64,000 nt of DNA from assembly GCA_034670305.1 (NCBI GenBank), contig JAXMNT010000023.1, positions 32,001 through 96,000 of the forward strand. Direction: 5' to 3'. This document shows positions 39,073-58,181 of the stretch, piece after piece (positions within the stretch are counted from its first letter, which is position 1; every line of letters starts with the position of its first letter). A program made the position numbers and the translations under genes. Source of the stretch: Deltaproteobacteria bacterium. GTDB taxonomy: Bacteria > Myxococcota_A > Polyangia > Polyangiales > Houyiibacteriaceae. The notes below the pieces were generated by a model. The model was not told where the DNA came from and ran no database searches. It was given only the letters and a program-made list of their open reading frames with translations.

Positions 39073-40115
39073 GCAGCGCCCGCACGTTGCCGCTGCGCGA
39101 TCCGCGCCTCGTCGCGATCGCGGCCCTGCTGCCGGTCGGGTTTGTCGGCCACACCATCCAGCTTCTGTCCGAGGACCGTCCTTGGGATCCCGCGCAGTGG
39201 CCGCGGTACGACTGGACACCCGGCTGGCACCTCGCGCTGCCTCCATGGCTGGTGGTCGCGTTTGCGGTCGGGCTCGGGGTGGCGGTGCTGGGGCTCGCCG
39301 TGGCTGTCTTCCGACGCGGCGACCCGCATCCGGCGCGCCTCAGCGATCGAACCTGGTTGCTCGCGACCGCGACGTTCTACTTCCTGCACTACCTGACGTA
39401 CCCGTTTCGGATTCGAAACCACATGACGTTGATGTTCGCGATGCTCTTCGTGATCGCGGGCTGTCACGTCGTCGCGGGGCGGAGGTCGCGCACCGAGGAG
39501 CCCCGGACTCGGGTGCTCGATCGATGGATCGTGCGCGGCGTCGCGCTCGTGCTCGCGTTGACCTACACGTTCGCGGCGCTCCACAAGACGAACGTTCGGT
39601 TCCTCGATCTCACGCTGCCGACGGCGGCGCTGCGCGCGGTCGACGACTTCTGGATCTACGGCGACCTCGGTCACGCGGCGCCGCCCTGGGCCAAAGCGGT
39701 GGCGATCTACGGAACGCTGGTCGTCGAGTACTCCTTTGTCTGGTTGGCGTGGGCGTTCACCCGAACGCGCGTCTTCTTCGTCGTCGGATTGATGCTGTTT
39801 CATTTTCCGCACATCGCTGTGATGAACGTCGCGGACTACCCGATGATCGCGAGCGCGTTCTTTCCGGCGCTCTTCAGCGAAGCGCATTGGCGGGTCCTGC
39901 AACGCCAACTCCCACCGTCGTTGTGGACGACGACCGGCGCAGCGGTTGGGGTCGGGGCGCAGCTGTGGTGGATGCCGTACTGGGGCGCGATGATGGTGTA
40001 CGCCTTTGTGGTGGTCGCACTCTGGGGCGCGTGGATCGGCGCGATGGCGGCGAGCTTCTACATGCGCTTTCGACCCTCGGCGCCCGCCCCTGCGACAGGT
40101 GTCACACCCGTCTGA
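39069..40115 (+). CDS. HTTM-like multi-pass membrane protein
   Basis: IRNH, YTFAALHK, VVE and LMLFH motifs; ATGA overlap. Confidence 0.65.
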   Translation: MSSARTLPLRDPRLVAIAALLPVGFVGHTIQLLSEDRPWDPAQWPRYDWTPGWHLALPPWLVVAFAVGLGVAVLGLAVAVFRRGDPHPARLSDRTWLLATATFYFLHYLTYPFRIRNHMTLMFAMLFVIAGCHVVAGRRSRTEEPRTRVLDRWIVRGVALVLALTYTFAALHKTNVRFLDLTLPTAALRAVDDFWIYGDLGHAAPPWAKAVAIYGTLVVEYSFVWLAWAFTRTRVFFVVGLMLFHFPHIAVMNVADYPMIASAFFPALFSEAHWRVLQRQLPPSLWTTTGAAVGVGAQLWWMPYWGAMMVYAFVVVALWGAWIGAMAASFYMRFRPSAPAPATGVTPV

Positions 40116-48946: not shown

Positions 48947-49777
48947 ATGAGAAGACTTCTCCTCCTTGGTCTGGTCGTGGGCTGCACCGTGACGCTCACC
49001 GTCGACGCCACGCTCTACCGCCGACCCACCACCTACGATACCGCGGACAGCCCGCCGCCGCCGCTGCGCGCCGAAGCCAGCCCTGGCGAAGCGCCGGAGC
49101 TCGGCAGCATCTGGGTGAGCGGCCATTGGGAGTGGCGAGGGACGAGCTGGCGCTGGACGCCCGGCCGCTGGACCAAACCCCGCGAAGGCTACGTGTGGGA
49201 ACCGCCGGTCTGCGTTGCGCTCGCCGGCACCTACCGATACCACCCGGGCTACTTCCGCCCGGCCGACGAGGAGCCGCCGGAGGAGTACCGAGCCCCGGGC
49301 CAGATCCAGCTGCACAACCCGTCGGGTGTGCGCCCAGACGTGCCGAGCCGCGTGCAGATCCGTCCGAACGAGCCGGCCCCCGAGACCACCTGGGTCGCCC
49401 AGCGCCCCGATCCGGTCGCGCCGGACACCGAACGTGAAGTCGGCGCCAACCCAGAGCTCGGCGGCGGCGAGCCGCTCAACCCGCGCGTCGGCGCGGGCCA
49501 AGACGGCGTCACCGGTCCGACCGCGGGCGAAGCCGGCACCCAGACGGTGGAGCTGACCTGCAGCCTTCCGATCGCCCGTGTGCCCCGCGCGCAGGGCCGC
49601 TTCGTCATCAACGGCACCGGCTTCGATCTGGCGACGGTCGTGAAGGTCGGCGGCACGGTGCAGAGCATCCGCAGCACCCGCCCGACCTCGCTCGACGTGA
49701 ACATCGACCGCGGTGGCGTGGTCACCGTCCAGCGCGGCCAGACCCGCGTCGAGTGCGGTTCGATCGAACTGTTCTAG
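48947..49777 (+). CDS. YXWGXW-repeat lipoprotein
   Basis: Lipobox VVGC; WVSGHWEW, WTPGRW and YVWEP repeats. Confidence 0.8.
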   Translation: MRRLLLLGLVVGCTVTLTVDATLYRRPTTYDTADSPPPPLRAEASPGEAPELGSIWVSGHWEWRGTSWRWTPGRWTKPREGYVWEPPVCVALAGTYRYHPGYFRPADEEPPEEYRAPGQIQLHNPSGVRPDVPSRVQIRPNEPAPETTWVAQRPDPVAPDTEREVGANPELGGGEPLNPRVGAGQDGVTGPTAGEAGTQTVELTCSLPIARVPRAQGRFVINGTGFDLATVVKVGGTVQSIRSTRPTSLDVNIDRGGVVTVQRGQTRVECGSIELF

Positions 49778-49840
49778 CAGGTCGCCCCGAAGGCGCCCTG
49801 GCCCTTGCCCTTGCCCTTGCCCCTGCCCTTGCCCTCGGTG
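49774..49840. repeat. CTAGCAGGTCGC-started (GCCCTT)n repeat copy
   Basis: Same first 12 nt as 47475-47486, followed by the hexamer tract and GCCCTCGGT. Confidence 0.75.
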
Positions 49841-49941
49841 ATTGTTCCGCGACCAAGAGCGCGGCCAACGCGCACCAACCCACAACAAGCCAGCGTCGCG
49901 ATGATCCCGTGACGCTGGTTTTGTGAGAGCCTCCCCGCGAG

Positions 49942-51663
49942 ATGAGCACCGGCTCCATCGTCGTGGTGCGCGAGTACTTCACGACCGGCGATCCCCGTTT
50001 CCTCGAGGAGCTGTTCGCCTGCCAGGACCACGCGGCATTGGCGGGCTTCGCGCCGATGTTCTTCGGAGACCTGCGCCCTTGGGCCCGCGCCCAACTCGAG
50101 CGCTACATCGACGATGGGTGCGACCGGCCGTTTCACCGCGCGCTGGTCAAACGGGTCTTCAAAGCCGCCGAGCGTGCCGACGACGCGGAGCTCGTCGCCC
50201 GGTTCGCGGTGGCGTTCGACCGGCTCGTGTCGATGGAGCTGCGCACGGTCAAGAAACGCTTCTGGGGGCAAGGCCGCCGCGAAGTTCAGATCCTTCGCCG
50301 CAAAGGCAGCTACCCCGGTCGGCGCATCTGGTACGAGCCGAAGTCGGTGCAGAAGTGGAAGCCGCCGAGCCATGGTTCGGTCGGCGCGCAGTTCTCCTTG
50401 GCCACCCGTCAACATCTGCGGCGTCGCGCGCTGCGGTTTCTGCGCAAGCTCGGGCCACGGGACCCCGAGCGGTTCCTCGACTGTGCTTCGCTCAGCTTGC
50501 GGCTCTACGAAGACGCGCACTTCGACACCGGCGCGGACATCCCGGAGCGGTTCGCCCTGGTGAACTTGCTCTTTCAGTGGACCCCGGTGCTTTACCGCAC
50601 GTCGCGCAAGATCTTCGTGACCCACGGCCGCAGCCTCGCGGATCTCCAAGCGTCGCTGCTGCACGAACACCTCTGGCTCGAGCAGCCCGAGCGCGTCGAG
50701 CAACTGCTGCCGCTGTGCCGCGCGCTTCTCGTCCGCCGCGCGCTGCTCGACTTCTACAACCGCGCGTTTCCCGACGCGCTGGACGAGGTGCCCTTCGAGC
50801 GACTGCGGCCACTGCTCGAGAGCGAACACCCGGACCTTCAGGCGTTCGGCATCGAGCGGCTGAAGAACGCAGAGGGACTCGAGCGGGTGTCGGTCGACGA
50901 CTGGTTGCGACTGCTGCAGCTCGAGCATCCGGAGCTCTTGCCGATCGTGGTCCAGCAGATCGAAGCCCACGTGAGCCCGAGCCGGCTGACCGAAGCACAA
51001 AAGATGGCGATGGCGGTCCGGCCCGAAGTGCACGTCGCGCAGCTCGGACTTCGATGGCTGATCGAAGCCAACACAGATCTCGACGTGATGCTCCAGCTGC
51101 GGCACGCCACCTGTCCGGGTGTGCGTGCCGAAGCCGCGCTCTGGTTGGCGGATGCGATCGAAGAGCGGGGCAGCGTCGAGCAACTCCGCGAGATGCTCGA
51201 TGCCCGCCACGACGACATGCGCTGCGCGGCGCAAGTGCTGCTCGAGCACGAACGGTTCCGCGACGAGACGAGGTTGTGGCTCGCGCTCGCGGAGTCGCCG
51301 TACCCGGAGATGCAGGCCCTGTTGACCCAGCACCTGGAAGAGCGCCGACGGGCGTTCGCAGGCGACGGGTCCGCAGTCCACCATCTGTGGGCCACGAGCC
51401 TGCTCTCCATCCATGGCGGCAGCCGAACCAAACGCCGGGTGCTCCGACAGATCGCGGACCGCATCGGCGAAGATCCGGGACAAGCCGAAGCACTCTTGCC
51501 CCTGCTTCGGATCTCGCTGCGTTCCGTGCGTCCCTCGGAACGCGGTGCGGGGTTGGCGGCGATTGCGCGGCTCGCGTTCACCGACGCTTCGTTCGCAGCG
51601 CTGGTCGCGACGGAACTGCCCGAGCTTGATCTCGGGTTGAACGCCGAACCGGTGCCCGCATGA
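49942..51663 (+). CDS. Retron-associated alpha-helical (ARM/HEAT-like) repeat protein
   Basis: 573 aa, Leu/Ala/Arg-rich helical repeats such as LRPLLESEHPDLQAFG and LREMLDARHDDMRCAA; first gene of the operon; ATGA-coupled to the SWIM gene. Confidence 0.75.
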   Translation: MSTGSIVVVREYFTTGDPRFLEELFACQDHAALAGFAPMFFGDLRPWARAQLERYIDDGCDRPFHRALVKRVFKAAERADDAELVARFAVAFDRLVSMELRTVKKRFWGQGRREVQILRRKGSYPGRRIWYEPKSVQKWKPPSHGSVGAQFSLATRQHLRRRALRFLRKLGPRDPERFLDCASLSLRLYEDAHFDTGADIPERFALVNLLFQWTPVLYRTSRKIFVTHGRSLADLQASLLHEHLWLEQPERVEQLLPLCRALLVRRALLDFYNRAFPDALDEVPFERLRPLLESEHPDLQAFGIERLKNAEGLERVSVDDWLRLLQLEHPELLPIVVQQIEAHVSPSRLTEAQKMAMAVRPEVHVAQLGLRWLIEANTDLDVMLQLRHATCPGVRAEAALWLADAIEERGSVEQLREMLDARHDDMRCAAQVLLEHERFRDETRLWLALAESPYPEMQALLTQHLEERRRAFAGDGSAVHHLWATSLLSIHGGSRTKRRVLRQIADRIGEDPGQAEALLPLLRISLRSVRPSERGAGLAAIARLAFTDASFAALVATELPELDLGLNAEPVPA

Positions 51664-53306
51664 AGCTCGGGTACGTCGGCACGAGCGCCGTGGACCTCGG
51701 TCCGTACCGGTCGACGATCGGGTTCAAACCGAACCTCTGCCGCGAGCCGGTCTGGTTCGAGGGCGCGCTCCGGGACCCGGTGCGTTTCCGCGAGGTCATG
51801 AGCGCGCTGCACGAGATCGTGGTCGGGGACCTGCGCCCGCCCAAGAAGGATCGCAGCCGTCACGACGCGTACCTCCAGCGCAAACAAGCCGACGAAGAGA
51901 AGCTGCGGGCGCAGCTCACCGAATCCGCGCAGTCCGAGATCCTCGCGGCGACGGTGGCCAAGCCGCTGCCCCCCGACTTTCAGAAGAAGTACCAGGAGGC
52001 CCATCAGATCTACTGGCACCTGCGCCGCAAGTGGGCGAGCGAACTGTGGCAGCACGACCGGGAACTCTTCCGGCACCTGGTTCCATGCGATCCCGTCGTC
52101 ACCGTGGCGCCCGACGTGGTGCTCTTCGAAGGCTTCAGCAAAGACGAGTCCAGCTACGGCTGCGTCAGCCTCGACCGCGGTGCGATCGATGGCCAAAGCG
52201 TCTCGCTCGGCACCACCAACGTGGACTACTCGGTCGCGCTCTTCGAACACTTCCAGTCGCTGCGCAGCTACAAGGAGACGCGCCTGCACGTGGACCCGCA
52301 GGGGTTCGAGGTGAACACCGAAGGCAACGCGGACTACCGCGAAGAGAAGATCGAGCTGCCGCCGAGTTGGCTCGCGGGGTTCGGTCAGATCAGCGCGGCC
52401 GCGGCGCTCGATGCCACCGTCGTGCCGCTCTCCGTCGAAGCGCTCTACTCGCTGCTTGCCACACTTCGCCGCCGGCGTGCCCGCACGAGCCCGCGCGCGA
52501 TCCGATTCGAACTCGAGCCGGGCAAGTCGCCGCGCCTCGTGCTCGAACCGTGGGGCACCGCGATCGAATCGCGCGGACCCGCCTGGGGCGGCCGCAACGA
52601 ACACATCCGGATCTGGGGCCGCCGGCGCCTGCTCGTCCTCGCGCGAGCGCTGCCCTTCGTCGACCGGTGCGAAGTGCATCTGCTCGGCACGGGGCTGCCG
52701 AGTTTCTGGGTGCTGCACCTCGGACCGATGCGGCTCACCCTGGCGCTCAGCGGGTGGACCACCAATGACTGGACGAGCGGCGCGGCGCTCGACGCATTGG
52801 CTGGCGAAGTCGATCCCGACGAGACCACCATGGAGCAGGTCTCGCAGGTGCTCTTTCGCGAACGCGCGACTTCGTTCGCGGGCATCGCCTCCGACGTACC
52901 CGCGGGCGATGCGAAGATCGCGGCGGCGCTGCACCGCTTGGCCAAACGCGGCCAGTGTGTGTTCGACGTGGGTGCGGGCGTGTACCGCTGGCGGCAGATC
53001 CTGCCCGAAGCGATCGGCGAAGCGCAGCTCGGTCCAGAGCCGGTCGAGAAGACCGAAGGCCGCAAACTCTTCGCCGGTCACAAGGTGCGCATCACCCGCG
53101 ACGAACGGGTGGGCGACAAGCGGCTCCTGCAAGGCACCGTGCAGGGCACCAAGTGCGAGACCTTGCTCGACCTCGACGGCCGCATGCGCCAAGCGGTCTG
53201 CATCTGTGCGCACCACAAGAAGTTCGGGATCAAACAGGGTCCCTGCCGGCATCTGCTGGCGCTCCGTCTCGAAGCGCCCGCCGATGCCATGAAGGGCGCA
53301 CCATGA
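51660..53306 (+). CDS. Retron-associated SWIM zinc-finger protein
   Basis: C-terminal CIC-x12-CRH (SWIM CxC..CxH); DPVVTV..D...FEGFSKDESSYG core; wHTH-like ALHRLAKRGQCVFD. Confidence 0.85.
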   Translation: MKLGYVGTSAVDLGPYRSTIGFKPNLCREPVWFEGALRDPVRFREVMSALHEIVVGDLRPPKKDRSRHDAYLQRKQADEEKLRAQLTESAQSEILAATVAKPLPPDFQKKYQEAHQIYWHLRRKWASELWQHDRELFRHLVPCDPVVTVAPDVVLFEGFSKDESSYGCVSLDRGAIDGQSVSLGTTNVDYSVALFEHFQSLRSYKETRLHVDPQGFEVNTEGNADYREEKIELPPSWLAGFGQISAAAALDATVVPLSVEALYSLLATLRRRRARTSPRAIRFELEPGKSPRLVLEPWGTAIESRGPAWGGRNEHIRIWGRRRLLVLARALPFVDRCEVHLLGTGLPSFWVLHLGPMRLTLALSGWTTNDWTSGAALDALAGEVDPDETTMEQVSQVLFRERATSFAGIASDVPAGDAKIAAALHRLAKRGQCVFDVGAGVYRWRQILPEAIGEAQLGPEPVEKTEGRKLFAGHKVRITRDERVGDKRLLQGTVQGTKCETLLDLDGRMRQAVCICAHHKKFGIKQGPCRHLLALRLEAPADAMKGAP

Positions 53307-53316
53307 CGATGCGCCG

Positions 53317-53590
53317 TAGTCTCAGTTTTCATCTCTTCGAGGAGAACCATCCGCACGAGCCCATCATGCCTCGGCGTTACGCCGCGGTGGAGTTTCGCTT
53401 CCCATCCATCCCCACGCCCGATGCTCTTGGTTGGCCCCGCACGCCCACTCATCGCTACCCCACGAAGGGACCCCCCATTGCATGGGGGGTGCCGGTAGCG
53501 AGAGTGGGCAGCGGGGCCTGGGGTGATCGGCCGTGGTCCGGAGCACGAAGTCGAGTGGGTGGTTCTCCTCGAGAAGATGAAGGGGGCTAG
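53317..53590 (+). ncRNA. Retron ncRNA (msr-msd)
   Basis: Terminal inverted repeat 53328-53352 / 53557-53581; msr hairpin CGGCGTTACGCCG; long msd hairpin 53433-53518; immediately upstream of the retron RT. Confidence 0.88.
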
Positions 53591-53595
53591 ACAGC

Positions 53596-55260
53596 ATGGC
53601 CTTCAAAGATTGGCTGCGCGGCACCTGGAAGAAGGTGAAGGCCTGGCTCGCCTACAACCCGAGCAAGGTGCCGAAGCTGCCACCCCCGAAGGTGGTGACG
53701 CTGCCCGAACCGAAGGCGCCACCCAAGTCGTGGGGCACGCCAGCGGGCACGCCGTTCGATCCGACGTCTCCGGCGGCGCCGCCCGCGGCCTCGGCGAAGA
53801 AGAAGAAGCCGCAGCCGAAACCGATCGATCCGTGGGCGACCGGAACGCTGCTGAAGTTGTCGCCCGAAGAGTTGCGGGCGCGGGCCATGAAGATCCAGCC
53901 TTGGAAGACCGAGTGGATCGGCCGGGTAGACGTCATCCCGCCGCAGGGCGACGAACGCACGGCGCTCATCGATCGCGGGCTCGTGCTGCGCGGGTTCTTC
54001 ACCGAAGAAGAACTCGCTGAGATCCACGAGCTCGGCGACCTGTGGCTCGAGCACCACGAAGCAGCGAAACTCGCGAAGGCCCGCGCAGCACAGAACGCGG
54101 ACGCGGCGATCGCGGCGCTTCGCCAAGAAGAAGCCGAGCGGAAGGCGGAGAAGAAGCGCCTCGCGAAGGAGCGGCGGGAGAAACGCCGCGCGGCGATCGA
54201 ACACCGGAAGAAGACCGACATCGTCTTTCTCGGCCGCGGTGTCTCCGGCCGGCTCGGGGACCGGCGTGCCCACGTCGAGAAGCTCGGCGCCGCGGGGCTG
54301 CCGGTGCTCGCGACGCCCGCCGATGTCGCCCAAGCACTCGGGCTCCAGATCCCGAAGTTGCGTTGGTTGGCCTTCGCCTCCGACGCACCGGAGCGCTCGC
54401 ACTACGTGCAGTTCGAAGTGCCGAAGCGGCGTGGTGGCACGCGGGTGCTGGCGTCCCCGAAGCGCGACATGCGCGCCGCACAGTCGTGGATCCTGGAGAA
54501 CATTCTCAGCAAGGTGCCGCTCCACGACGCGGCGCACGGTTTCGTGCCGGGGCGCTCCACCAAAACCTGCGCCGCTCCACACCGCGGTCGGCCGGTCGTG
54601 GTGAACTTGGACTTGAAGGACTTCTTCCCGTCGATCCTGCTTCGGCGCGTGTCCGGTTTCTTCGAGGCGCTCGGGTACTCGCCGGCGGCCGCCACCATCC
54701 TGGGGTTGCTCTGCACCGCGTCGCCGCGCCGGACTGTCCGCTACGATGGAGTCTCCTTCGAAGTCGCGGTCGGCGACCGTGCGTTGCCGCAAGGCGCCTG
54801 CACCAGTCCTGCGTTGAGCAACTTGATCGCCAAGCGGCTCGACGCACGGCTTGCGGGTTTGGCCAAGGCCCGCGGCTTCGTCTACACGCGCTACGCCGAC
54901 GACCTCACCTTCAGTGGACCGAAGGACGAAGTGCCCCGCTTGCTCGCGCGCATCCGCCACGTGGTCGACGAAGAAGGGTTCGTCGTGCACCCCGACAAGA
55001 CGCGGGTGCAGCGCAAAGGCGGCCGGCAGATGGTGACGGGCATCGTCGTCAACGACAAAGCCCGGCTCACCCTGCGCCGCGACGAAGTCCGGAAGCTTCG
55101 CGCGATCCTCCACAACGCGAAGAAGACTGGCCTCAAGGCGCAGAACCGCGACCAACACCCAGACTTCGTCGCCCACCTGCGCGGCAAGATCGCCTACCTC
55201 GGCATGGTGGACCGGGCCCGCGCCGACGAGTTCACCACCGCGCTCGAAGCGCTGCTCTAG
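53596..55260 (+). CDS. Retron-type reverse transcriptase (myxobacterial Mx162-like) with long N-terminal extension
   Basis: PKRRGGTR, AAHGF, DLKDFFPSI, LPQGACTSP, catalytic YADD and retron region-Y VTG (QMVTGIVVN); no group II intron maturase/HNH tail. Confidence 0.93.
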   Translation: MAFKDWLRGTWKKVKAWLAYNPSKVPKLPPPKVVTLPEPKAPPKSWGTPAGTPFDPTSPAAPPAASAKKKKPQPKPIDPWATGTLLKLSPEELRARAMKIQPWKTEWIGRVDVIPPQGDERTALIDRGLVLRGFFTEEELAEIHELGDLWLEHHEAAKLAKARAAQNADAAIAALRQEEAERKAEKKRLAKERREKRRAAIEHRKKTDIVFLGRGVSGRLGDRRAHVEKLGAAGLPVLATPADVAQALGLQIPKLRWLAFASDAPERSHYVQFEVPKRRGGTRVLASPKRDMRAAQSWILENILSKVPLHDAAHGFVPGRSTKTCAAPHRGRPVVVNLDLKDFFPSILLRRVSGFFEALGYSPAAATILGLLCTASPRRTVRYDGVSFEVAVGDRALPQGACTSPALSNLIAKRLDARLAGLAKARGFVYTRYADDLTFSGPKDEVPRLLARIRHVVDEEGFVVHPDKTRVQRKGGRQMVTGIVVNDKARLTLRRDEVRKLRAILHNAKKTGLKAQNRDQHPDFVAHLRGKIAYLGMVDRARADEFTTALEALL

Positions 55261-55339
55261 ATCCCGCCAGTTCAGTTCGCCTCGCCAGTGCGGCCCCCAA
55301 TGACAGCCCCGGGTTCCCGCACCCGCCGCCCGACGCGCT

Positions 55340-56305
55340 TCAGCCGAGCGCCACCGCCAGTGCTTCGAGCAGCGCGCCGCGCCGAGTGCTCCGCGGCATC
55401 TCTCCGGCGGGCGTCTGAACGAACGCATCCAGCCAAGGTTCGATTGGACCGCGGGCGAGTATGCCGTCCAGTGCATAGAGCGAGAGCTCCTCGACCCCGC
55501 TCCCGCGACAGATCGCCACGTCGTCCGCGAGCTCGGACACATCGCGGTACGGACGTTCGTCCCCGAGCGCGCCACCACCCACCACACCGAGCGACACCGA
55601 CGACGACCGCCGCGCCAGCCGCGCGAGCAGGTCCCGCGCGATGCGCCGGTCGACCAACCCGAGCGCGTACCCCTCGAAGAGACTCGTGTACGCCATCGGC
55701 TCGAACGCGCGCTCCGACAGCCCTTCGATCGAAGTGCCGAGCCATTGCTGCCAGCGGGCTCCGAACGAGAGCATCGGCGGCGCCACGACATCCACCCGCC
55801 AGCCGCGCTCCCGAAGCGATGTGGACAGTGCGCGGTGAGAAGCAACTCTCGGGCGCCGGACGGGGAAGCGAGCCAGCGGTGTCACCGGGACGGGGTTTGG
55901 GGGCTGTGCCCCCAAGAAGTACCCCACCAGTCGCGCGATGCGGGCGTCCAGCCGAAGCACCGACTGGCCATCGCGCAGCACCGAGCGGGTCCACGCGATC
56001 GGTGGCTCGACGTCGAGCAGCAGCGTGGTTGGCGCGAGGCCTTCGGTGAGCCGGTCCACGTGCGCCGCGAACGCGTGCACGTTGCCTGCGTTCGGCCACC
56101 GCCCATCGTGGTCGGAGAGCAGCGGCCAGAGCGTGAGTTTCGTGCCCGCGTCGGCGGCGCGCCCTTGCAACCGGCTGAACTCGGACCGCGTCTCCGGCGC
56201 GTCGAACAGGGCCACCGCCAGCTCGATGCCGCGTCGCGCCAACGCGTCGAGCAAGGGAGGGTCGAGTGCAGCGAGCGGCACATGCTCCGAGTACAGCCGA
56301 CGCAT
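55340..56305 (-). CDS. Hypothetical protein (possible TIM-barrel)
   Basis: GAGGTG RBS; LWPLL, LLDVEPP, PMAYTS and LSLYALDG; convergent with the RT gene. Confidence 0.65.
   Translation of the reverse strand: MRRLYSEHVPLAALDPPLLDALARRGIELAVALFDAPETRSEFSRLQGRAADAGTKLTLWPLLSDHDGRWPNAGNVHAFAAHVDRLTEGLAPTTLLLDVEPPIAWTRSVLRDGQSVLRLDARIARLVGYFLGAQPPNPVPVTPLARFPVRRPRVASHRALSTSLRERGWRVDVVAPPMLSFGARWQQWLGTSIEGLSERAFEPMAYTSLFEGYALGLVDRRIARDLLARLARRSSSVSLGVVGGGALGDERPYRDVSELADDVAICRGSGVEELSLYALDGILARGPIEPWLDAFVQTPAGEMPRSTRRGALLEALAVALG
55866..55918. repeat. 53-bp palindromic repeat element, copy 2 (inside CDS 55340-56305)
   Basis: Reverse complement of 21811-21863 with 2 mismatches. Confidence 0.9.
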
Positions 56306-56377
56306 CACCTCTTTCGTGTAGCAGTGGCCCGTCGCCGCGACGAGTCCAAGCGGCAACGAGCCCCCGAGGCACAGGTG

Positions 56378-57007
56378 TCAGCCGGCAGGGTGCTGCGACC
56401 CAGCCGTCAATGCCTTGCGGGCCGGGGCGCGGCGTGCGTCCGCGGCGCCGGTGCGTTCGAGCCGCGCGAGGATCCGCGCTCGCTTCTTCGCCGACAGGGT
56501 GCGCACCGAGTACACGGTGGTCGAACGCACCGGCCCGAAGCCGACGTACTTCAAGGTCGCGGTCTTGAAGCTGCCGTGGAGCGCGCGGTTGTGGGCGAGC
56601 GTGTACCAGAAGCTCGGGCTGTCCATGCCGGTCACGAGGCGCGCCGAACGACCGGCGAGAAGACCCACTGGAAGCGGTCGTCCCTTCACGTTCTGGAAGG
56701 CCCAGCCCGGTAGGAACGCTCGGTCGATGAGCCCTTTGAGGGCAGCCGGCACGCCCGCCCACCACGTCGGGAAGACCCAGGCCACATGGTCGGCGCGTTG
56801 GATCGCTTCTTGGGCTCGAACCAGGTCCGGCTCCAGCGTCTGCCCCTCGCGAAAGCCGAATCGGAGCGTCGGGTCGAACTCGAGGTCCGCGACCTGAAGG
56901 CGGGACACGGTGCCGAACTCCGCTGCGCCCTTGGCGTAGGCGTCGGCCATCGCGCTGTGAAACGAGTTCGGATCCGGATGCGCTTGCACGATCAGTGTGT
57001 GGGTCAT
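56378..57007 (-). CDS. NAD(P)H-dependent oxidoreductase (flavodoxin-2, KefF/MdaB-like)
   Basis: AHPDPNSF and FPTWWAGVPAALKGLIDR. Confidence 0.88.
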   Translation of the reverse strand: MTHTLIVQAHPDPNSFHSAMADAYAKGAAEFGTVSRLQVADLEFDPTLRFGFREGQTLEPDLVRAQEAIQRADHVAWVFPTWWAGVPAALKGLIDRAFLPGWAFQNVKGRPLPVGLLAGRSARLVTGMDSPSFWYTLAHNRALHGSFKTATLKYVGFGPVRSTTVYSVRTLSAKKRARILARLERTGAADARRAPARKALTAGSQHPAG

Positions 57008-57051
57008 GGCGAACAACCTAGTGATGCACAGGAACATGGGTAGACGAGTGT

Positions 57052-57078
57052 ATGCATCCCGTGCATGCATGAATGCAT
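57052..57078. promoter_or_regulatory. Putative LysR binding site(s)
   Basis: ATGCA-N5-TGCAT dyad at 57052-57066 (T-N11-A) and a second ATGCATGAATGCAT, between the divergent LysR and oxidoreductase genes. Confidence 0.55.
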
Positions 57079-57988
57079 GGCATCCACCAACGGTTCCGCA
57101 CCCCTTCACGCGTGGGACGATCTGCGCATCTTTCTCGCGGTCGTCCGCGCCGGTTCGTTCACCGACGCAGCCCGCAAGCTCGGGGTCGAGCAGTCCACCG
57201 TGAGTCGCCGCATCGCGGCGCTGGAGACGAACCTCGAAGCCCACCTCTTCGACCGGACCCCGCGGGGCCTGCGCAACACCCCACTCGCGCAACAGCTCCG
57301 AGCACGGGCCGAGCGGGTGGAGGCTGCGGTGCTCGCTTTCGACGACGACGCACGCGGCACGGAGCGCGCGGTCGCCGGCCAGGTTCGGCTCGCACTCACC
57401 GAAGGGCTCTCGCTCTCGGTGGTCGTGCCGACGCTGCTGCCCGAACTGCGCCGCACCTACCCAGAGATCACGGTCGATCTGCTGTGCGACTACCAGTCCG
57501 CCGACCTGCTCCAGCGGGAAGCCGACATCGCCATCCGGTTCTACCGACCGACCCGCGGCGACTTGGTGGCCAAGCGCGTCGCGCGGTTGCCGACCGCCAT
57601 CCTCGGCCAGCGCGATTACATCCGAACCCGCGCGCCGCGCAAACACCACCGCACGGCCGACCGCTTCGACTGGGTCGGGTTTCACATGCCTGGTTTCCGC
57701 GCACCCGAAGAGCAATGGCACCAGCAGTGCGTGGGGGTGGAGCCCGCGATCCGTTCCAACAGCTACGTCTCCCAGGTGGCCGCGGTCCGCGCGGGGCTGG
57801 GCCTTGCGTTGCTCACCCGCTCGCTCTGCCGCATCCACCCGGAGCTGCGGGAAATCGAACTCGGTCTGCCCGAGGGCCCGGTGCTCGAACTGTGGCTGGT
57901 CACCCATCGCGCGATCCGAGACTTGCCTCGGGTCGCCGCGGTCTACGACCACCTCGAAGGCGGCCTTCGCGCGCTCGACGGCATGTAG
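57065..57988 (+). CDS. LysR family transcriptional regulator
   Basis: WDDLRIFLAVVRAGSFTDAARKLGVEQSTVSRRI; start may instead be 57077. Confidence 0.93.
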   Translation: MHECMASTNGSAPLHAWDDLRIFLAVVRAGSFTDAARKLGVEQSTVSRRIAALETNLEAHLFDRTPRGLRNTPLAQQLRARAERVEAAVLAFDDDARGTERAVAGQVRLALTEGLSLSVVVPTLLPELRRTYPEITVDLLCDYQSADLLQREADIAIRFYRPTRGDLVAKRVARLPTAILGQRDYIRTRAPRKHHRTADRFDWVGFHMPGFRAPEEQWHQQCVGVEPAIRSNSYVSQVAAVRAGLGLALLTRSLCRIHPELREIELGLPEGPVLELWLVTHRAIRDLPRVAAVYDHLEGGLRALDGM

Positions 57989-57995
57989 CGGCCGT

Positions 57996-58181
57996 CGGCT
58001 TCGGCTCCGGCTTCGGATTCGGCTTCGGCTTCGGCTTCGGATTCGGCTTCGGCTTCGGCTTCGGCTTCGGCTTCGGCTTCGGCTTCGGCTTCGGCTTCGA
58101 AGGGCAAGGGGAAGGCATCCTCTCCTGCGGATTCGGATTCGGACACCGAGGGCAAGGGCAGGGGCAAGGGCACGGGCAAGG
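57996..58181. repeat. (TTCGGC)n tract followed by the GGATTCGGACACCGAGGGCAAGGG... element
   Basis: Tandem hexamers; 47 bp identical to 10371-10417. Confidence 0.9.

Follow-up and report, generated by a model that had tools for sequence, protein, structure and literature searches.

A type XIII retron in a Polyangiales genome and the putative msr-msd RNA upstream of its reverse transcriptase gene

Gene organization of the locus

The window, the whole 64,000-nt stretch of DNA analysed here, carries a HEAT/ARM gene, a SWIM gene, a non-coding RNA (ncRNA) element and a reverse transcriptase (RT) gene, in this order and all on the + strand. The three open reading frames are open and full length. The first of them (49942-51663, 573 aa) encodes a HEAT/ARM-repeat accessory protein that matches the PADLOC model HEAT-ARM_XIII over residues 2-565 (E 7.9e-131), and its 3' end overlaps the start of the SWIM gene by 4 nt. 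The latter (51660-53306, 548 aa) codes for a SWIM zinc-finger protein, a putative effector recognised by PADLOC SWIM_XIII (E 7.9e-166). Its translation reads CxCx12CxH, in the form CICAHHKKFGIKQGPCRH, near the C-terminus, and the protein matches no Pfam family at E<=0.01.

The third gene (53596-55260) encodes a 554-aa retron RT with a long N-terminal extension. Residues 165-553 match PADLOC RT_XIII (E 1.9e-153), residues 275-472 match Pfam RVT_1 (E 1.3e-21), and the translation contains YADD and VTG. The NCBIfam retron models stay below their cut-offs for this protein (retron_St85_RT, 215.7 bits vs 235). Mestre 2020 (PMC7736814) gives NAxxH as a retron RT motif; at the expected place the window RT reads HDAAHGF, so that N-A is absent, and in 14 orthologues the AHGF core does not vary. 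The N-terminus is proline-rich and is followed by a stretch (window 53824-54050, RT residues ~78-150, e.g. WIGRVDVIPP..DERTALIDRGL) that is conserved in 14 of the 14 aligned orthologues and lies outside all Pfam and PADLOC model matches as well as outside the region that the window RT has in common with Mx162-type RTs.

Further out, the locus is flanked by genes for a 3-hydroxyacyl-CoA dehydrogenase and a flavodoxin-fold protein, and no mobile-element or defence genes were found among the 10 flanking ORFs scanned. According to Mestre 2020 (PMC7736814), such a gene set defines type XIII retrons, equivalent to RT clade 10, which holds Mx162, Mx65, Sa163 and Ne144. In many, not all, of these systems a HEAT/ARM gene stands before the SWIM gene. 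In that naming, the locus is an intact and complete type XIII retron. Two more frames, 52955-53590 (+) and 53364-53624 (-), overlap the ncRNA and were taken for chance frames in G+C-rich DNA.

Structure and conservation of the ncRNA

An earlier note on this DNA had proposed an msr-msd ncRNA at 53317-53590 (+), an extent that encloses the covariance-model match at 53326-53583, and had named folding as a check. The RNA of 53317-53595 indeed folds far better than its shuffles: its minimum free energy is -163.5 kcal/mol, whereas 200 dinucleotide-preserving shuffles give -114.4 +/- 5.2 (z -9.5) and none of them folds as well. The fold is framed by the a1 arm (5' inverted repeat, 53328-53358, +) and its complement, the a2 arm (3' inverted repeat, 53551-53581, +), with which it covaries. 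When re-counted by script, the full stem of 31 positions comprises 26 Watson-Crick pairs, 3 G-U pairs and 2 mismatches. Within its outer 25 positions (53328-53352 with 53581-53557) the 22 Watson-Crick pairs claimed in the note are present, together with 2 G-U pairs and 1 mismatch (C53335/A53574). The pairing said to continue inward to 53358 consists, from 53353-53358 against 53556-53551, of G-U, C-G, an A/A mismatch, C-G, G-C and A-U. G53359, which the note had described in an A-G-C context, follows in that context, unpaired and facing G53550.

Inside this frame, the short hairpin CGGCG-TTA-CGCCG lies at 53372-53384 as described, and forms part of a 9-pair msr hairpin with a UUA loop (53368-53388, +; 53368-53376 with 53388-53380) that contains one U/C mismatch. 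A linker (53389-53411, +), where the RT stop and the RNA-DNA overlap would be expected, separates it from the 125-nt msd stem-loop (53412-53536, +), which has a conserved base, a hypervariable upper part and a cap at 53470-53490. The three msd blocks of 8 nt each that had been read by eye (53433-40/53511-18, 53443-50/53502-09 and 53452-59/53494-01) and the arms of the cap (53470-78/53482-90, with TGC as the loop) consist of Watson-Crick pairs throughout, and the stem extends outward to 53412/53536, a part absent from the earlier description. The remaining segment, 53537-53550 (+), would be the template for the 5' tail of the msDNA, with G53550 as the predicted first templated base. Rfam gave no match at E<=1 in 50000-58000 on either strand.

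Related RTs are frequent: 71 of 201 genomes of the same order have an RT match at E<=1e-40, often two to four per genome, and the assembly itself (7.9 Mb, 105 contigs) holds three RT paralogues, 100, 49 and 44% identical to the query. The 49% paralogue belongs to a type XIII-like retron (L002, contig C67, ~1078-1331, +) whose RNA has a 30-bp a1/a2 stem, GGGAGCC and 189 nt from the G to a2. The third belongs to another type XIII-like locus (L003, contig C10, 2971-3244, -), where the RNA lies upstream of the 44%-identical RT and is matched at 38.4 bits by the covariance model R1 introduced below.

A scan of species-representative genomes yielded 80 named loci. All loci with a blastn match (E<=1) to the window msr, 50 in number, were carried forward. 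After removal of four same-contig duplicates and of five loci belonging to other RT groups (L002, L061, L068, L092 and L093), 41 distinct loci remained, including the window. The RTs of the comparison loci are 52-72% identical to that of the window. By record title, these loci come from Myxococcota (Polyangium, Sorangium, Byssovorax, Sandaracinus, Myxococcus), from Planctomycetota and Verrucomicrobiota, and from two MAGs, one acidobacterial and one of Sumerlaeia. A SWIM homologue occurs in the examined flank at 39 of the 41 loci. Throughout the set, a long inverted repeat, whose arm sequences differ between loci, encloses 170-197 nt beginning with the conserved G. The one exception, L012, is without a2 beside the conserved GAAGTCGA; six loci have bulged stems, and gapped duplex folding recovered the arms everywhere except in L012. 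The msr and msd of the latter (727-1200, +) are normal and the best a1 complement lies ~250 nt farther on, which may reflect insertion into a2 or its decay.

In a MAFFT alignment all 41 loci share G-A-G (53357-59) and G-T-C (53550-52) without change; these and the other counts over 41 loci are conditional on the selection by blastn to the msr, a bias that the model test on the named loci lessens only partly. The earlier note had set covariation among homologous loci as a test. The RNAalifold consensus contains 41 pairs, and at 29 of these both sides change. Of 1664 cells, 90.2% are paired, versus 36.6-49.0% when the partners are slid by 1-3 columns; the covariation score is 0.524 versus 0.10-0.14 and is reached by none of 500 shuffles. 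Both-side changes affect 22 of 25 pairs of the homologous a1/a2 stem. The msr hairpin is paired in 97.3% of cells over the 41 loci, with both-side changes at 3 pairs, and the U/C mismatch at 53371/53385 occurs in the window alone. The base of the msd stem (53412-53422 with 53526-53536) also covaries, one pair being, for example, A-U in 19 loci, U-A in 15 and C-G in 6. The middle part of the msd varies too much between loci for alignment, but when folded singly it gives one hairpin of 103-125 nt in 40 of 41 loci, those of the window and L004 being the longest. Across genomes labelled as five phyla (Myxococcota, Planctomycetota, Verrucomicrobiota, Acidobacteriota and Sumerlaeota), the sequences of the msr and of the lower msd stem hardly change, free variation being confined to the upper msd stem and the a1/a2 arms.

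Several variants of this arrangement were observed. In two related genomes (L010, 3346-3609, -; L011, 739-1002, +) 21 nt are inserted immediately behind the conserved GCCCA of the msr; the insertion can fold as an additional small hairpin and brings the distance from the G to a2 to 197 nt. In two Planctomycetota loci (L047, 382-621; L073, 77-317) the ncRNA is situated ~1.9-2.2 kb upstream of the RT match, and in L047 the order is RNA, SWIM, RT, with the SWIM gene in between. In 26 of the 41 loci a purine-rich GGAG-type motif (53339-53344 in the window) has its start 17-19 nt ahead of the conserved G, although the remaining a1 sequence varies freely. Since the mature Mx162 RNA starts after 16 nt trimmed from the 5' end (Simon 2019, PMC6868368), a 5' trimming of the same length, if it occurs here, would fall near this motif.

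A covariance model, R1, was built from the 40 other loci with the window excluded. It matches the window at 53326-53583 (+) over its full length with 162.9 bits (E 7.3e-46), so that the covariance-model check suggested in the note comes out in favour of the RNA. At E<=0.1 over the 7.9-Mb assembly the window locus is the sole match, and no extra or retrotransposed msd copies were detected in the genome beyond it. In 23 of the 80 named loci the RT is at least 50% identical and its match starts in the first 28 residues of the query alignment; R1 gives a full-length match in all 23, at 110-200 bits. Four of these 23 (L040, L043, L050 and L073) were never used in training, and in them the context of the G is unchanged. 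A weak match within the window, at 39611-39697 (-; 13.1 bits, E 0.0058, 75% G+C), was taken for a chance hairpin.

These data bear on what the element could be other than a retron RNA, namely a palindromic repeat, a hairpin for translational control of RT, or an element that terminates or attenuates transcription of the SWIM gene. Translational control draws on the position of the element: a2 is followed by the RT start after 15 nt, and the ends of the outer stem and of a2 lie 10-15 nt ahead of that start, covering the likely ribosome-binding stretch, so that the element may in addition regulate translation of the RT. On the other hand, a scan of 49500-55600, uninformative in a genome like this one, finds no T-run terminator at the ncRNA, and the sequence of the latter is unique in the genome. 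Moreover, the element travels with the RT across several phyla, including the loci where the SWIM gene stands between RNA and RT (L047, L073), and it has every feature of a retron ncRNA. We therefore consider a function unrelated to reverse transcription scarcely credible.

Another reading accepts the retron as conserved by descent and holds that it is silent, or makes no msDNA, in this organism, being a relic or a tightly repressed locus. Four DNA sequencing runs of one study, possibly those from which it derives, contain the stretch as contigs; a joint 53693/53799 seen in short contigs was taken for other DNA, only 20-24 letters fitting on each side. There was no RNA run among the sequencing runs found to contain the stretch. 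No sigma-70-type promoter was found in 49500-55600, and the window msr hairpin bears the sole mismatch at the 53371/53385 pair among the 41 loci. However, the promoter scan is blind to non-sigma-70 and high-G+C promoters, the three ORFs, among them an RT with catalytic YADD, have remained open and full length, and the R1 score of the window falls inside the 110-200 bits of the other loci. A silent locus thus appears distinctly improbable.

Since the gene context, the covariation in 41 loci and an independent covariance model all point to an msr-msd ncRNA, as the earlier note had proposed, 53317-53590 is very probably that of an intact type XIII retron, primed at G53359.

Candidate priming guanosine and predicted msDNA

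The candidate branching guanosine, whose 2'-OH would prime DNA synthesis, is G53359 (+), in the context GA-G-C. It occupies alignment column 42 and is invariant in 41 of 41 loci, under the selection described above, and in four further loci outside model training; the base after it is C in 32 loci, A in 8 and T in 1. G53359 is the first unpaired base past the invariant G-C and A-U closing pairs and stands opposite the invariant G53550. The pair preceding these closing pairs is C-G in 36 loci and U-A in 5, while the closing pairs themselves, being invariant, are beyond proof by covariation. In L118, a Myxococcus locus with an Mx162-type RNA, the 34-nt a1 is followed at once by the G of CAGC, in a position equivalent to that of G53359, and CAGC is the priming site of Mx162 (Simon 2019, PMC6868368). 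The same source lists an xAGx context for all the studied retrons. The assignment of G53359 as priming residue, made in the earlier note, is thus favoured by comparison of sequences, through invariance, place at the stem end and equivalence to the Mx162-type G, and in all likelihood it is correct.

The branch could instead form at another guanosine of a genuine retron ncRNA, the likeliest being G53357, within the last stem pairs, and a less likely one G53353. G53357 is likewise invariant in 41 of 41 loci. Yet its context is C-G-A, not the xAGx listed for studied retrons in PMC6868368, and it is paired with the invariant C53552. In L118 it is the first base after the stem that carries the CAGC guanosine, matching G53359, and distant type XIII loci show the motif TTAGC at the same model position. 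Priming elsewhere than at G53359 is, in our estimation, improbable.

R1 aligns with the more distant type XIII loci L061, L068, L070, L092, L093, L103, L110 and L112 at 22-50 bits. Most of them have TTAGC (TAGC in L068) where the window lineage has CGAGC, indicating that an A-G at the stem end is common to the wider family.

With G53359 as the primer, and by analogy with studied retrons, the following course can be proposed. The transcript would fold by pairing of a1 (53328-53358) with a2 (53551-53581), and the RT encoded just downstream would bind the conserved msr hairpin region. The RT would then start DNA synthesis from the 2'-OH of G53359 and copy the RNA leftward, beginning at G53550, which the general retron mechanism suggests as the first template base, and proceeding through the 125-nt msd hairpin (53536 to 53412) to a stop in the linker at ~53395-53411. 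Removal of the copied RNA by host RNase H would leave a branched, RNA-linked single-stranded DNA of ~139-157 nt, folding as a long DNA hairpin. The priming site, the start, the stop and the RNase H processing are all modelled here on studied retrons. By analogy with other retron types, the SWIM and HEAT/ARM proteins may act as effectors guarded by the msDNA.

The size of the product depends on where the RT stops. For Mx162, Simon 2019 (PMC6868368) reports a 162-nt msd with an 8-base overlap. Carried over by way of L118, the Mx162 stop falls 162 nt before a2, at 11 nt past the msr hairpin with another 17 nt to the base of the msd stem; the corresponding stop in the window would be near 53395-53399 and would yield an msDNA of ~152-156 nt, whereas a stop at the base of the msd stem would yield 139 nt. 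Since termination depends on RNase H1 and tertiary structure and is unreadable from secondary structure (Palka 2022, PMC8989520), this length remains an estimate. With the stop placed from L118 or at the stem base, 139-157 nt appears more likely than the 130-150 nt proposed in the note. Folded as DNA, the predicted msDNA of 155 nt gives -51.9 kcal/mol (z -5.9).

Relation to Mx162 and other known retrons

The first retrons to be discovered belong to type XIII, and the earlier note had likened the layout of the RNA to that of Mx162. Mx162 and Sa163 indeed share with the window an a1/a2 stem of ~31-34 bp, with a priming G in xAGC context as the first base after it, an msr hairpin built on the core GCGGYG-loop-CGCCGC, a long msd hairpin in which a GTTCTTGG-like motif occurs internally, and an RT whose N-terminus is extended and whose gene follows a SWIM gene. 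The resemblance holds for the general architecture but not for the lineage; this RNA falls in a paralogous one, with an RNA class of its own. The three RTs encoded by a Myxococcus genome that was reached through L051 have identities of 61, 46 and 47% to that of the window; the 61% copy is of the window kind and the 46% copy (L118) is of the Mx162 type. According to papers of 1987-89, Mx162 reportedly has 34-nt arms, a 485-aa RT and a 77-nt RNA branched at G20. In L118, a 34-nt a1 ending in ...CATCA is followed by G-C-C, giving CAGC, with 212 nt to a2 and an RT ORF of 485 aa; two other genomes carry the same group, with CAGC and 206 nt. CAGC is the sequence given for both Mx162 and Sa163 by Simon 2019 (PMC6868368). 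We conclude that the L118 group is the Mx162 lineage.

The window differs from L118 in GAGC versus CAGC, in 191 versus 212 nt from the G to a2 and in an RT of 554 versus 485 aa, and so lacks the traits of the Mx162/Sa163 lineage (CAGC, ~206-212 nt from G to a2, 485-aa RT). R1 finds no full-length match in the Mx162-type loci, only weak ones to the core of the msr hairpin. Both lineages co-occur in single genomes, the Myxococcus genome among them, and we conclude from these sequences that the window lineage is paralogous to the Mx162 lineage. None of the 120 best protein matches is named as the Mx162 RT.

A 2026 survey (PMC13712802) distinguishes three RNA models for type XIII, A_firmi, B_Ne144 and C_Mx162/Mx65. 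One non-Mx162 class is thus named after Ne144, from Retron-Nex2 of Nannocystis exedens, and the comparison of the latter with the window is one of class name and length only. Typical members of the window lineage, with 174-180 nt from the G to a2, would give with an Mx162-like stop an msDNA of ~135-146 nt, near 144. The window class may therefore be the Ne144 class, and it may already be included in the type XIII RNA structures of Mestre 2020 (PMC7736814).

A bolder interpretation would see here an experimentally uncharacterised third branch of type XIII, possibly the Ne144 class and distinct from both Mx162 and Mx65, in which the fixed lower stem of the msDNA would be the specific ligand of the SWIM and HEAT/ARM proteins. 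In that case selection would act on the hypervariable tip, which might serve, for instance, to bait phage factors. We regard this proposal as tentative and rather unlikely. Our literature search found no paper testing the function of SWIM or HEAT/ARM proteins in type XIII retrons, the third most numerous retron group in the 2026 metagenome survey (PMC13712802). In practical terms, the delimited ncRNA, the supported priming G, the template start and the map of conserved versus variable parts lend themselves to the design of a construct for tests of msDNA production or for making DNA with a retron.

Among more distant systems, Retron-Eco1 (Ec86) shares with the window an a1/a2 stem, a priming G in AGC context at the stem end, msr hairpins and an msd hairpin, and its processing depends on host RNase H (PMC6868368, PMC8989520). 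Unlike the window, it has an RT of a different clade, a type II-A effector and a much shorter msd (86 nt), and there is no similarity between the two at the sequence or Rfam level.

Collectively, the RNA of the window is of the same broad type as those of the classic myxobacterial retrons, an ordinary element that involves no new principle. The comparison of the locus with type XIII retrons reveals no conflicting feature. Both have an RT of the RT_XIII family, a SWIM protein with CxCx12CxH and a HEAT/ARM gene preceding it; in both, the ncRNA combines a1/a2 arms with a short hairpin in the msr and a long one in the msd; and both are set in the chromosome between housekeeping genes.
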